From Polyangiales bacterium (GTDB taxonomy: Bacteria > Myxococcota_A > Polyangia > Polyangiales > Polyangiaceae): a DNA stretch of 64,000 nucleotides. Numbering within the stretch: position 1 is the first letter of the stretch; each line of letters starts with the position of its first letter. The stretch is from assembly GCA_038231275.1 (NCBI GenBank), contig JBBRLQ010000018.1, positions 32,001 to 96,000 on the forward strand, written 5' to 3'. Made by a program: the position numbers. Of this stretch, positions 42,001-45,000 are shown in pieces.

Positions 42001-45000
42001 CCCACCGTCCCGCGAACGCGCCGCGTCGCGTCCCGCGTCCACGGGCCGCACCCCCTCCGTCTCCTCCTCGACGAGGAGCGCAGTCCGCGACCCGCACCCG
42101 AGGAGCAGCGCGGCGAGAAGGACGGCACGGCGACGCATTTTTCGCCCGCAGCCTACGCCATCTCGAGGCCTGACCGGAAAAGCCGGTCAGGCCTCTCCGT
42201 CAGGAGTCGTTTCGCTCCGCTGCGCTTCGCTCCACTCATCAGTCCGGCGTGTCGGTCGGCCCCGCGGGTCGAGGGGACGAGGGACGCGCGGATGAGGAGG
42301 AGGGCGGAGAGGGCCGCCGCACGCCCTTCGGAGTCGGCGTCGGCGTCGGAGTCGGCGTCGGCGTCGGAGTCGGCGTCGGAGTCGGCGTCGGGGTCGGGGT
42401 CGGGGTCGGCGTCGGCGTCGGGGTCGAGGTCGGGGTCGGGGTCGGGGTCGAGGTCGGGGTCGGGGTCGAGGTCGAGGTCGCGCCGCTCCTCCGGGTCATC
42501 ACTATCGCCGCCGCCCCGATCGCCAGCGCCGCAAGGGCCACCAGCGCGATCAGAAGACCGCTACGCCCTGGGGCAGAAGCGACGACGAGCGCGGGCGTCG
42601 GTGTCGGCGTCGCGGTGATCGGCGCCGCCACGCCACGCGTCGTCGCAAGGGGGCTCGTCGGATTCGAACGCGGCGGAGCCGGAGCGGCCGGGGCCATGCG
42701 GCGCACGCGATCCGCGAACGTCAGCGCGTGCGGTGGCGCGAAGGGAGCGAGGGCATCGACGAGCTCGCCGAGGCTCGCATATCGCTCGGAACGCTCCTTT
42801 TCCAGGCATTTCAGGACGAGCGCGTCGAGCTCTGGCGGGATCTCCGCGCGGAAGGACGAAGGCGTCGCGGGAGTCGCGGTGGCGATCGCGACCGACAGCG
42901 CGGAGATGATCCGCGCGGGGAAGGGAAGCCGGCCGGCGAGCAGCTGGTAGAGGATGACGCCGAGCGACCAGATGTCGGTGCGCTCGTCGACGTCCTTGCT
43001 GTCCTTGATCTGCTCCGGCGACATGAACAGCGGCGAGCCCACGATCGCCTGCGTCGTCGTCAAGCTCAGGTCGCCGCCGACGGCATCGCGGTGGAGCAGC
43101 TTCGAGATCCCGAAATCGAGCACCTTCACGAGCGACGTGCCGTCCGCGCGCTTCACGAGGAAGAGGTTCGCCGGTTTGAGATCGCGGTGAACGACGCCGG
43201 CCGCGTGCGCCTCGGCGAGGCCCGCGCACGCTTGCAGCACGTAGCTGACGGCGTCCGCGATCGGCACGTCGCCCGCGCGCACGAGGACGGCGAGATCGTG
43301 CCCCGTCAGGTACTCCATCACGAGGTACGGCAAGCCGTTCGGCAGGCGCCCGACGTCGAAGACGCGCACCACGTTCTCGCTCGTGAGGCGCGCGCACGTC
43401 TGCGCTTCGCGGAGGAAGCGCGCCATCGCGTCGGCCTCGCCGCGGAAGAGGACCTTGATCGCGACGCGGTGCCCGAGCTCCATGTGACGTGCCGCGAAGA
43501 CCGCGCCCATGCCGCCCTTGCCGATCGACTCCTCGAGCATGTACTTGCCGGCGATGCTCTGGCCGACGGTCGGAAGACCGAGCGCCGCCGCGACACCTGG
43601 CGCGAGCTGGACGTCGGTGCGTTCGCCGACTGACCCGACGCCGGACGAGGCGGCGTGCGCGGCGTCGGCGAGTCGGACGCCGCAGTTGAAGCATCCCGCG
43701 ACGTGCGCTTCGATCTCCTTCGCGCGCGACCCTTCGAGCTTTCCCGATGCGAACGCGGCGAGCGTCGGCTCGTCGAGGCACGCGGGGTCGCGATCGGTCG
43801 GCGAAGGGGTCCCCACGGCACCCTCAGTTTGCCTCGAATTCTCGCGAGGGCAAAACGCGCGGCCGGCGAGGTGCGAGGCGAGCCCGCTACGGCGAGCAGA
43901 CGCCCGTGCTGACGACGTCGGCGCACGTCGTCTCGGGGGCCTGGAGCACGAGGCGTCCGCGCGCGCCGCCTCCGCCGCCGCATCGCGCGTCGCCCGTTCC
44001 TTGGGCGCCAGTGCCGGGAGGGTTCGCAGCGCCTGCCTGTCCGCCGACCCCGCCAACGCCTCCGGGGCCGCCGGTCGCGCCTGCGCACGTCCCGCCGACT
44101 CCGGCGTCTGCTCGCGAGGCCGCGCCGCCGCTCGTCCACGGATCTGCCGCCGTCGGCCGGCAGGCGCCGCCACCGCCGCCACCCCCGGACAATTTGATCG
44201 CGGCGGTCGCGCTGTCGAAGACGATCTTCTTGTCGGACTGCATCCACACGGTACCGCCCGCGCCGCCGCCGTAGCCGTCGGGGCAGCCTTGATCGGCCAT
44301 CGCGCCGCCTCCGCCTCCGCCTCCGCTCGCCTCGATCGTGCCGCGGATCGTGATCGTCCCGCAGAGCGACACGAGCTGCACGGCGCCCCCGCCGCTTCCG
44401 CCGACGCGGCACCCTTGACGCGCGTCGAGCGCGCCGCCGCCATTTCCCCCAGCGAAGAGGCCGATTTCGATCGGGGACCCTCCGGTCGCGCCGCACGTCG
44501 ATCCGCCGCCCGGCTCCGCGTTTCCCCCGCCGCCGCCCGGGCCGGTGGCCGCTCCCTTCGTGTGCGGGCCCGCGCCGGGGAACGATCCGGTGTCGCCGCC
44601 CGCGACGTCGAGGAGCGCGTTGTTCTCCATCGTCAGGTTCTGCACGGTCATGACGACGAGCGGCCGCGAGCCGGCGGTCTGGAGCTTCGCGTCGACCCCG
44701 ATGTGCAGCTCGTAGAAGAGGAGGAGGCAGTACGGCGTGCTCGGCCCGGCGACCGGAATGCATCCGGCGTACGTGTCGGTGTCGACTTGGAGCGTGCTCG
44801 TGATGTCGAGGGCCGGCGGCGCCTGGGCGGGGTACTGGATGCCGTTGGCGACGACGAAGCGCGGCGTGCAGTCGTCGATCGGGTGAGGAGCCGCGTCGAA
44901 GGCGGCGTCGATGGCGCCTCCGCCGTCGCCTGCGTCGGTCGTGATCGGCGCGTCCGTCGTGCCGGTGGCGTCGCCTGCGTCGCCTGCGTCGGAGGACGGG

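Follow-up and report, generated by a model that had tools for sequence, protein, structure and literature searches.

Small interspersed repeats are, to our knowledge, common in bacteria, and the determinants of their landing sites are mostly unknown. REP, BIME and REPIN elements are mobilised by RAYT transposases, which are Y1 enzymes of the IS200/IS605-like type; the REPs of Escherichia coli lie within about 15 nt of stop codons, and the species-specific REPs of Pseudomonas putida concentrate near convergent gene ends. Non-autonomous elements derived from IS200/IS605 are palindrome-associated transposable elements. The mycobacterial interspersed repetitive units (MIRUs), of 40-100 nt, lie in the sense orientation behind genes and inside operons, and their mini-ORF overlaps both co-directional neighbour genes. 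Chromosomal integron attC repeats, such as those of Vibrio cholerae, are species-specific imperfect palindromes that begin at or within the stop codon of the preceding ORF and number more than 100 copies. QMITE2 of Coxiella and SPRITE of Streptococcus pneumoniae are reported to be MITEs that lie in 3' untranslated regions or are terminator-like (PMC10969869).

The element described here is represented by one copy on the minus strand of the window, the 64,000-nt stretch of DNA from a Polyangiales bacterium that was analysed, where alignments of full copies delimit the whole unit of ~77 nt to 42162-42238. Its upstream host, called by our own gene caller, is a Ser/Thr protein kinase-like ORF of 526 aa on the same strand (42239..43816), with a Pro/Thr-rich repeat tail; its translation contains HRDLKPANL, which we take to be a kinase motif. 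The TGA stop codon of this ORF occupies 42241-42239, and the 5 nt that separate it from the core are the element's 5' pentamer TGAGT (42234..42238), the junction reading TGA TGAGT. The 5' module has a core of 26 nt that consists of two GGAGCGAA(G/A)CG half-repeats; this core lies at 42208..42233 with 0 mismatches, a match that was obtained with none of 100 shuffles. The hairpin 1 region, GGAGCG-AAA-CG(A)CTCC, spans 42203..42218 by sequence and by RNA and DNA folds; the window copy belongs to the extra-A subfamily at this hairpin, and in its minimum-free-energy fold CTCC pairs with the first GGAG instead of closing hairpin 1. Folding also placed hairpin 2, with a 13-bp G+C-rich stem (GAGGCCTGACCGG / CCGGTCAGGCCTC) and the loop CTTTT, at 42165..42195, and the 3' terminal TCGAG (family consensus YTGAG; 42162..42166) forms the end of the unit. 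All these features are on the minus strand. A 96-nt stretch containing the copy gave an RNA fold of -43.1 kcal/mol (z -3.2) and a DNA fold with z -4.2. Downstream, on the same strand, a 306-aa gene with a signal-peptide-like start (41221..42138; our caller and the sequence) begins with an ATG 23 nt past the element end. Neither strand of 41900-42500 scored a single terminator-like site, and the T tract is absent after hairpin 2, which is followed by CGAGATGG; an intrinsic terminator was thus rejected for this G+C-rich hairpin. When RNA run X19 was mapped to the window, coverage fell mainly on the low-complexity Pro/Thr repeat and the depth over the element was zero; in two metatranscriptome sets, only 5% of the sampled words were present.

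The genome (G000), that of an uncultured myxobacterium, is a metagenome bin of 9.28 Mb in 164 contigs, 94% complete. In the whole genome, the core was matched 102 times with at most 3 mismatches (50, 32, 14 and 6 matches with 0, 1, 2 and 3 mismatches, respectively). The 96 cores with at most 2 mismatches, 50 of them perfect, that the survey's finding had reported were reproduced exactly, and they are shared among ~40 contigs. An nhmmer model built from 31 full copies gave 116 hits (E<1e-3) where 114 had been counted earlier, and 45 of these hits include the unit's 3' end, compared with 42 near-full copies before. The flanks of these hits are all unique except in tandem arrays. Contig depth in the probable source metagenome climbs to 881 at the 5' module and 227 at the hairpin from ~6-46 in the majority of the bins around them, which fits roughly 100 copies of the module and 30 of the hairpin.

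To place the copies relative to genes, we used our own codon-usage gene caller, which gave 7734 genes with 90% coding and TGA, TAG and TAA as the stop in 5332, 1773 and 629 of them, respectively. With this independent caller, 71 of the 96 copies lie 0-13 nt behind a same-strand stop codon, against 73 in the earlier count; the exact form stop+GT+core occurs in 34 rather than 36, and the adjacent stops are TGA in 65, TAA in 4 and TAG in 2 of the 71, where TGA 67, TAA 4 and TAG 2 had been found. Among the remaining 25 copies, 8 occupy internal places in tandem arrays or the edges of contigs and ~6 stand behind an unannotated coding-like ORF; called genes contain 6 of the 96. The orientation of a copy is that of the sense strand of its upstream gene. 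The downstream neighbour of the 71 copies is convergent in 44 and on the same strand in 27, the convergent arrangement being enriched over its genome-wide share of 36.6% (p=2e-5), and the next start lies 9-621 nt from the copy. Divergent spacers hold only 6 copies despite 5362 TGA sites. The host genes are ordinary, with normal lengths and a codon-bias score slightly below the genome median (0.341 vs 0.384); the score does not support highly expressed genes as preferred hosts. A replication-strand test found 49 of 89 copies co-oriented, which is not significant, the GC skew being too weak (median 0.0065). No other repeat family behind stop codons emerged in this genome when 12-mers were counted across the 45 nt that follow every stop. 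Runs X2 and X3 may contain short element-like contigs.

The full unit runs from (T)GAGT through the 30-nt 5' module and a short linker to the G+C-rich hairpin of 13 bp and the final YTGAG, the module being two GGAGCGAA(G/A)CGC half-repeats able to close a 6-bp hairpin. Its 5' end is constant: 111 of the 116 nhmmer hits start at model positions 2-8. The family logo of the 96 copies shows, from -5 to -1, T in 57, G in 70 (A in 21), A in 87, G in 91 and T in 88, so that position -4 is a purine in 91. The 5' junction takes the form GT in 34 copies, a 3-nt form (e.g., AGT) in 13, a 4-nt form (e.g., GAGT) in 5 and a 5-nt form (e.g., TGAGT) in 10; one copy is joined at the core's GGA, and one junction lies inside the stop codon, the TGA of the congeners having turned into TAG. 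In 36 of the 71 stop-adjacent copies, the junction is not on the stop itself but 1-10 nt past it. In contrast to the 5' end, the 3' end is ragged, with 71 of the 116 hits lacking the hairpin side and 45 reaching positions 78-88; the shortened copies end mostly ahead of the hairpin or within its 5' arm, at positions 35-59 in 64 cases and at 60-77 in 7, and the terminal TGAGC is retained in ~10 short copies. The hairpin had been regarded as optional, but it does not behave as an optional, independent module: the 3' ends form a continuum, at most 2 of the 49 hits of a whole-genome hairpin 2 search lack the 5' module, and there is no free-standing hairpin family, no hairpin 2 copy lying far from a 5' module. 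In the 13-bp stem, 31 copies exhibited 10 double compensatory changes at several pair positions and 35 single changes that break pairs.

No terminal inverted repeats were found, the 5' end GAGTGGAGCG mismatching the reverse-complemented 3' end GCTCAAGGCC, and no target site duplication, the base after the 3' TGA being independent of the base after the stop; the 3' TGA is unchanged even behind TAA stops. Rfam covariance models, including those of group II intron domains, gave only chance matches, with E values of 0.5 or more and scores well short of the gathering thresholds. A 15-codon mini-ORF loses its frame across the junction classes and in a subfamily with a 1-nt indel. Copies are single or in direct tandem, and inverted doublets were never seen. 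Tandem arrays of 2 to at least 3 units lie at C7:314560, C8:94642, C26:25006, C27:108653-108769 (a contig end), C29:69173 and C57:19199; in those of C29, C7, C26 and C27 the units have private variants in common, which points to local duplication.

Like REP, BIME and REPIN elements, the element is short, extragenic, hairpin-forming, species-specific and of high copy number (96-116), lacks terminal inverted repeats and target duplication, is concentrated in convergent spacers and at the 3' ends of genes, and is able to add a stem-loop to mRNA. It differs from them in that it has no GTAG-type head or inverted doublets, is bipartite and asymmetric with two different hairpins, and is placed at single-nucleotide distance from the stop in the sense orientation; moreover, no RAYT was found in the 94%-complete genome, the lone Y1 gene being an IS605 tnpA with unrelated ends. 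The derivatives of IS200/IS605 share with it subterminal hairpins at both ends without inverted repeats or duplication, and a strand-specific mode of insertion on the 3' side of a short fixed word, with a similar word at the right end (here YTGA), but here the left junction varies by 0-5 nt, most 3' ends are ragged and no cognate TnpA/TnpB with matching ends was found. Unit size, sense orientation, variable tandem arrays (C7, C8, C26, C27, C29 and C57) and an upstream stop that touches a possible start in the element (TGA-GTG) recall the MIRUs, whereas the element lies mostly in convergent spacers (44/71) and not inside operons (same-strand neighbour in 27/71), its mini-ORF frame is not conserved and the next start is 9-621 nt away. 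The attC repeats resemble it in being species-specific, in beginning at or in the stop of the preceding ORF and in having more than 100 copies, but the element is dispersed on ~40 contigs behind conserved syntenic genes instead of forming one cassette array, no search for an integrase having been made, and no GTTRRRY core site was seen in the aligned copies. QMITE2 and SPRITE are likewise reported to be small, non-autonomous, mostly intergenic, located at gene 3' ends and of stable secondary structure (PMC10969869); compared with that description, the element hugs the stop codon and lacks inverted termini, direct-repeat duplications and a parent insertion sequence. The features of a MITE derived from a DDE element, namely terminal inverted repeats, target site duplication and a parent insertion sequence, are absent from it. 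The best reading is that the family is a new variety of REP/MITE-like repeats.

The reported absence from relatives held for the congeners G001 and G002 and for 34 genomes of the family (0 core matches at up to 3 mismatches); in the wider set of 60 relatives, two genomes from other families matched the core pattern, G059 with a loosely similar tandem. A covariance model gave 109 matches in G000 and 0-2 marginal matches per genome (22-29 bits) in 40 genomes of the family, including G001; of nine weak loci inspected, two share a hairpin AAGGYC...GRCCTTGAG and the rest were chance matches. Hairpins of this kind are single occurrences in two relatives. In the species-representative genomes, 10 loci came up, each of them a low-complexity or chance match; JGI metagenomes contained 0 exact cores, a 20-nt word giving 2 chance matches in coding DNA; and plasmid and phage collections had no match to the element. 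Full-text searches of the literature outside subscription journals found no paper on a repeat family fixed to stop codons.

Orthologous sites could be compared in the congeners, whose sequences at these loci are only 72-91% identical in the aligned blocks; the flanks of the window copy were not alignable in G001 or G002. As the survey's finding had indicated, the sites are empty: G001 lacks the element at all 12 of the 17 examined loci that were alignable on both flanks, and G002 lacks it at 7. The stop is also in the same place, at the same codon position in 9 of the 12 congener loci. The locus C1:468593 represents a clean insertion that left the spacer downstream of it and a conserved CGGGAATA block in place. 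At the four truncated copies examined no residual spacer was left and the copy abuts conserved sequence, while three full copies kept the spacer. The earlier proposal of a recent spread was thus supported by the perfect cores (50/96, 52%) and by the empty congener loci, and these data show that copies were added directly behind pre-existing stop codons once the lineage had separated from the sampled congeners.

Several null models were set against the preference for sites behind stop codons. The random intergenic placement used before, which predicted 2.4 of 96, proved too lenient, a TGA-aware null giving 24-43%. The preference itself exceeded every null that we built. To a large extent the TGA belongs to the element, as its 5' end: in most copies this TGA coincides with the stop instead of following it (AGT at -3 to -1 in 87-91 of the 96). 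Among the adjacent stops TAG is avoided (2/71, p=3e-6) and TAA accepted (4/71), and the last codon is biased toward C-R-C, with CGC in 17 of 71 (6.7% genome-wide) and CAC in 8 of 71 (1.8% genome-wide). The avoidance of TAG and the C-R-C codon suggest that part of the site choice is made at the level of DNA sequence. A model combining a sequence target with gene avoidance predicts 37-42% stop adjacency, against the observed 74% (71/96); within convergent spacers it predicts 66-70%, against 43 of 45 (96%, p about 1e-6), and within tandem spacers 41-45%, against 27 of 34. Sequence preference and gene avoidance therefore do not fully account for the placement beside stop codons.

We also searched the genome for a mobiliser. 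No transposase had been linked to the element, and none was after checks for Y1, reverse transcriptase and IS91-like genes in the 94%-complete bin. PF01797 had one match, a Y1 transposase at C70:2681-3043, beside a divergent ORF of 420 aa that we read as a putative IS605 tnpB; this Y1/RAYT candidate was rejected, as it forms an ordinary IS605 tnpA-tnpB pair with a different end hairpin on a contig without the element. The single reverse transcriptase is of retron type (best NCBIfam model, retron St85 family, 176 bits against a cut-off of 235) and was set aside because the region upstream of it is unlike the element. Five IS91-like Y2 fragments, on contigs of 1.7-2.7 kb, are mutually dissimilar and have no similarity to the element or its ends; such genes occur in 13 of 21 genomes, G000 included, thus in relatives without the element, and they were rejected as well. 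IS110 is represented by one fragment. No larger parent element or parent insertion sequence was found, the flanks of the 116 hits being unique outside arrays. Since the bin is 94% complete, a mobiliser could be missing from it.

Taken together, we consider the chances about even (probability ~0.5) that the family is a non-autonomous interspersed DNA element, young and restricted to its lineage, with a stop-linked choice of site and a trans-acting mobiliser. The copies lie in the gene's sense orientation, usually with the element's 5' TGA coinciding with the stop, and the enzyme presumably acts in trans. Two layers may determine the sites, a preference in the DNA itself for T-(G/A)-A with C-R-C in front of it, and survival only where no gene or promoter is hit, which would favour convergent spacers. 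The hairpin half may later be lost through deletions, and local tandem duplication would make the short arrays. Because a leftward deletion would destroy the stop, decay of this type would leave a family anchored at the 5' end and ragged at the 3' end. The TGAGC kept at the end of ~10 short copies is as expected if the hairpin was excised, but the deletion account needs ~65 independent hairpin losses while half of the cores are still perfect. The inexact 5' junction, the missing terminal inverted repeats and target duplication, the lack of a linked enzyme and the stop adjacency above the model also count against this explanation. A possible but unlikely course of events is insertion by copying from a template, in which a 3' end at the T(G/A)A of the stop would prime synthesis on a free element template with an end complementary to TGAGT. 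The template would be RNA or single-stranded DNA, used in target-primed or one-ended rolling-circle synthesis; copying from 5' to 3' would often abort at the hairpin, and the downstream join would sometimes replace the spacer. The constant 5' end (111/116) beside a ragged 3' end (71/116), the accumulation of 3' endpoints before the hairpin, the several junction registers (GT, AGT, GAGT, TGAGT and once the core's GGA) and the old spacer gone at 4 truncated copies and kept at 3 full ones all favour such copying, and the avoidance of TAG with acceptance of TGA and TAA is expected if the terminal A must pair. However, the lone reverse transcriptase, a retron type, has an upstream region unlike the element, the IS91-like genes are dissimilar to it and present also in relatives without it, neither a free template nor a master locus was detected, all flanks being unique, and the terminal TGAGC of ~10 short copies fits internal deletion, not abortive copying.

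The excess of stop adjacency over every sequence-only null (43/45 where 0.65-0.70 is predicted for convergent spacers, 27/34 where 0.41-0.45 is predicted for tandem ones) would also follow if the machinery recognised the end of translation or transcription and not a DNA word, T(G/A)A setting only the exact nucleotide; the route would be sense-strand DNA that is single-stranded in R-loops starting where ribosomes leave the mRNA. The strict sense-strand orientation and the 36 of 71 junctions lying 1-10 nt past the stop agree with this proposal, which we nevertheless hold to be improbable: the strong avoidance of TAG and the C-R-C context demonstrate a role for DNA sequence, the host genes are ordinary in codon bias (0.341 vs 0.384) and length, there is no orientation bias relative to a GC skew too weak to inform, and purifying selection against promoter hits could give the missing ~2-fold factor. 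Less probable still is that the element is a selected 3' untranslated module, an mRNA 3' stabiliser, terminator or termination context, with a distribution that reflects benefit and not targeting. Its stable folds (RNA z -3.2, DNA z -4.2), the 10 double compensatory changes in the 13-bp stem of 31 copies, a unit with the stop codon as one exact limit and the end of the strong hairpin as the other, and the similar single AAGGYC...GRCCTTGAG hairpins in two relatives are in line with such a role. On the other hand, the hairpin is missing from 71 of 116 copies, 35 single changes break stem pairs, and there is no T tract, no scored terminator-like site and no Rfam match; the element was not found in 36 (pattern) or 40 (model) genomes of the family though the host genes are conserved there, and benefit would not explain placement to the single nucleotide. 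Features of copying and of gene-end recognition would be combined if the family were the footprint of an undescribed insertion process in which the last base or bases of the stop codon serve as primer or microhomology and a small free template is copied outward from the TGAGT end, yielding a constant 5' end and an aborted 3' end. Single-stranded sense DNA or RNA that becomes accessible at the point where translation ends would guide that process to the ends of genes, and the family would in effect be a SINE-like, gene-end-specific bacterial element that rewrites 3' untranslated regions. We regard this combination as a whole as improbable, to much the same degree as gene-end recognition by itself.

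Ordinary small bacterial repeats, as far as we know, lack stop-codon placement this precise. What is unusual in this family is the combination of a start within a few nucleotides of in-frame stops, discrimination of TGA and TAA from TAG, the lack of inverted ends and duplication, the failure to find a recognisable mobiliser, and a placement that exceeds what sequence preference and gene avoidance explain. Through the insertion, each host gene would acquire a different 3' untranslated region, one that carries one or two stable stem-loops. If the residual preference for stop codons reflects gene-end sensing or template copying, it would represent a new route for the bulk rewriting of bacterial 3' untranslated regions and could be a handle for gene-end-specific insertion tools; if it reflects only selection, the family would be a clean natural example of purifying selection sculpting the distribution of a repeat.

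The source genome of the window is a 9.28-Mb metagenome bin of 164 contigs (69% G+C, 94% complete, 3.3% contamination), in which 102 matches to the 26-nt core of the element were found with up to 3 mismatches (50, 32, 14, and 6 copies with 0, 1, 2, and 3 mismatches, respectively), spread over about 40 contigs with 60 on the plus and 42 on the minus strand. The survey's count of about 96 copies with at most 2 mismatches, 50 of them perfect, was thus reproduced. A profile built from 31 full copies, which reach the 3′ end including hairpin 2, gave 116 matches (E<1e-3), and a covariance model gave 109. 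The 5′ module of the element is composed of two half-repeats (GGAGCGAAGCGC, AGC, GGAGCGAAACGC, TCC) and includes GCGAAGC, which we take to be a very stable DNA mini-hairpin. Summed contig depth in the probable source metagenome was 881 over the 5′ module, 227 over the hairpin, and about 6–46 in most flanking bins; because the depth over the two parts fits their copy numbers, an assembly artefact is unlikely. The units of one array had private variants in common, indicating local duplication. A 58-nt tandem array, built of a variant unit whose head is GTGT and whose hairpin is shortened, ran into two contig ends (C27:108653-108800 and C20:1-64); it breaks the assembly, in which its full length is probably not represented.

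In the window copy, which is on the minus strand, a perfect match to the family core (42233–42208) is followed by the 13-bp hairpin (42195–42165) and a terminal TCGAG (42166–42162). Its layout in the minus sense is ...CCGGAC TGA / TGAGT / core / ACTCC TGAC GGAGA / hairpin / TCGAG. The product of the upstream gene (42239–43816, minus strand) resembles a Ser/Thr kinase and has a tail of Pro/Thr repeats, and the downstream gene on the same strand (41221–42138, minus), for a secreted-looking protein, has its ATG 23 nt past the element end. A 96-nt stretch with this copy gave an RNA fold of −43.1 kcal/mol (z −3.2) and a DNA fold with z −4.2. No T tract stands behind the hairpin, no terminator-like or promoter-like sites were scored, and an Rfam search of the copy returned no family match, as had been stated before. 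The C-terminal tail of the kinase-like gene (42300–42480, minus) is coded by a long imperfect hexanucleotide repeat for Pro-Thr/Pro-Ser runs, and in each of the metagenomes compared unrelated organisms gave this repeat a summed depth in the thousands-fold range.

Across the family, the start just behind a same-strand stop codon, mainly TGA, was upheld. With gene ends from our own codon-usage caller (7734 genes, 90% coding), 71 of 96 copies had a same-strand stop 0–13 nt upstream, with stop-to-core offsets of 2 nt in 34 copies, 3 in 13, 4 in 5, 5 in 10, and 6 in 4. Among the remaining 25, 8 were inner array members or lay at contig edges, and about 6 stood behind an uncalled ORF with coding-like statistics. 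The adjacent stops were TGA in 65, TAA in 4, and TAG in 2 cases, against 69%, 8%, and 23% genome-wide by the same caller, so that TAG was depleted (p=3e-6). The last codon before the stop was CGC in 17/71 (6.7% genome-wide), CAC in 8 (1.8%), and CTC in 7 (3.0%), and the downstream neighbour was convergent in 44/71 vs. 36.6% genome-wide (p=2e-5). The distance to the next same-strand start ranged from 9 to 621 nt. The host genes were unremarkable, the GC skew of the genome was weak, and no other repeat family in it was enriched behind stops.

The share of stops expected among suitable sites was predicted by null models based on motif counts and on a weight matrix over positions −6 to −1. All TGA sites outside genes predicted 23.6%, all CTGA sites 38%, all C[AG]CTGA sites 43%, and the weight matrix, for which the occupied sites were also the training set, 37–42%, compared with 74% (71/96) observed. 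In convergent spacers, TGA and CTGA sites predicted 48% and 65% and the matrix 66–70%, compared with 43/45 observed (p=1e-6 vs. 0.65); in tandem spacers, the predictions were 24%, 43%, and 41–45%, compared with 27/34. For divergent spacers, the matrix predicted 17–19% of copies, and only 6/96 were observed. As stop adjacency exceeded every null, DNA sequence and gene avoidance explain the pattern only partly, leaving an unexplained excess of roughly a factor of two.

The two ends of the unit differed. In a logo of 96 copies, positions −5 to −1 relative to the core were conserved (T 57, G 70 with A 21, A 87, G 91, and T 88) and those further 5′ were background-like, so (T)GAGT is the element's own 5′ end. 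Full copies ended in GGCC-YTGAG(C), and inverted termini were absent. The 3′ TGA is not a target duplication: it was unchanged in copies that follow TAA stops, and the base after it did not track the one after the stop. The family is strongly asymmetric, with a fixed 5′ side and a variable 3′ side: 111/116 matches started at model positions 2–8, and only 45/116 reached the 3′ end (positions 78–88), the other 71 ending between 35 and 74 (3′ endpoints of the shorter matches: 64 in positions 35–59 and 7 in 60–77). In about 10 short copies, CGCTCC was fused directly to the terminal TGAGC. The GC-rich hairpin, which the survey called optional, was not an independent module: of 49 matches to it, 37 adjoined a core with at most 2 mismatches and 10 a 5′ module that had degenerated, leaving at most 2 by themselves. 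The 13-bp stem in 31 copies showed 10 double compensatory, 13 wobble, and 35 breaking changes. Flanks were unique outside arrays, so the element has no larger parent.

Absence from relatives was borne out: the core pattern with up to 3 mismatches was found 0 times in two congeners (G001 and G002) and 34 other family genomes, and the covariance model gave 0–2 marginal matches (22–29 bits) in each of 40 genomes of the family, G001 having none. Two of these marginal matches resembled the element in hairpin type only: they are single AAGGYCYGAC...GTCRGRCCTTGAG hairpins, very like hairpin 2, in two relatives (L122 in G003, 1480–1545, and L123 in G016, 1495–1545, both minus). In a genome of another family of the order (G059 C916, locus L003, about 1500–1640, minus), an intergenic tandem run of GGAGCGAAGCCTAGCGGAGCGAAGCG-like units bore only a loose resemblance to the 5′ module. 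In G015, a small repeat of another kind, TCGAGGGGGGAGGCGCAGCGAAGCGAAGCTCCCCCCTCGA, occurred in two copies with a common upstream flank (L124 and L130), one of them beside an apparent tRNA end. Contigs of 151–265 nt from two metagenome runs (X2 and X3), a soil metagenome from the same study and a metagenome from another study, matched the element with 1–8 differences; related populations with the family therefore probably exist elsewhere.

Seven regions, picked for holding several copies and hence a non-random sample of loci, were compared with the congeners, whose aligned blocks were 72–91% identical; the flanks of the window copy were not alignable in this comparison. Of 17 loci, 12 had both flanks paired in G001, 7 of them in G002 too, and all were empty, in agreement with the survey. 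The stop codon had the same position at nine (C23:17795, C23:26537, C1:468593, C1:473541, C4:372309, C4:381214, C4:367260, C29:69173, and C8:85759) and was shifted or unclear at three (C23:17151, C1:456394, and C8:94642). At C4:372309 the junction lies inside the stop, as GAC TGA of the congeners corresponds to GAC TAG TGGAGCG. C1:468593 is a clean insertion with the old spacer retained, and extra spacer was retained at the 3 full copies compared; at the four truncated copies compared, which lack the hairpin side (C1:473541, C4:372309, C4:367260, and C23:17795), the element takes up the entire non-conserved spacer. Because the congeners are distant, junctions at most loci were not readable to the base. 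Just 3′ of one copy, an apparent tRNA gene (C4 about 367150–367240, minus; L022) was 94–96% identical in the three genomes, and the spacer from the upstream stop to the presumed tRNA promoter was wholly different among them.

No mobiliser linked to the element was found in the 94% complete bin. The sole Y1 transposase belongs to an IS605 tnpA-tnpB pair (C70:1358-3133, with a divergent 420-aa ORF taken as tnpB), whose end carries a CTCCGCCC...GGGCGGAG hairpin and differs from those of the element. IS91-like Y2 transposases were rejected since no element-like sequence accompanied them and the family occurs in 13/21 genomes, this one included; the five mutually dissimilar fragments here (C105, C122, C126, C127, and C128, on their own contigs of 1.7–2.7 kb, one with internal stops) may be mis-binned or may represent collapsed repeats. 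IS110 was represented by one fragment. The only reverse transcriptase, retron-type and 449 aa long (C2:151427-152992), was not linkable to the element; its best match was the retron St85 family, below the cut-off, and a structured 218-nt region upstream could be its msr/msd.

In its behaviour the element is closest to hairpin elements of the REP or IS200/IS605 type, but it lacks the RAYT and palindromic doublets of the former and the cognate TnpA and exact left end of the latter. It also falls outside MIRUs, attC sites, terminators, and MITEs (reviewed in PMC10969869). It has a fixed 5′ end overlapping the stop, discriminates among stop codons by sequence, and is in excess in convergent spacers; it would be best read as a non-autonomous mobile element moved in trans. 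Template copying primed at the stop is an unlikely alternative for this placement, sensing of gene ends seems more doubtful still, and a selected role in the 3′ UTR is the one we credit least. Under movement in trans, purifying selection would contribute to the distribution, and the hairpin side would have been lost secondarily. This repeat is young and lineage-restricted and was added in sense orientation behind pre-existing stops, and its hairpin half, by sequence resemblance, may derive from a gene-end hairpin of the ordinary kind in this bacterial family.
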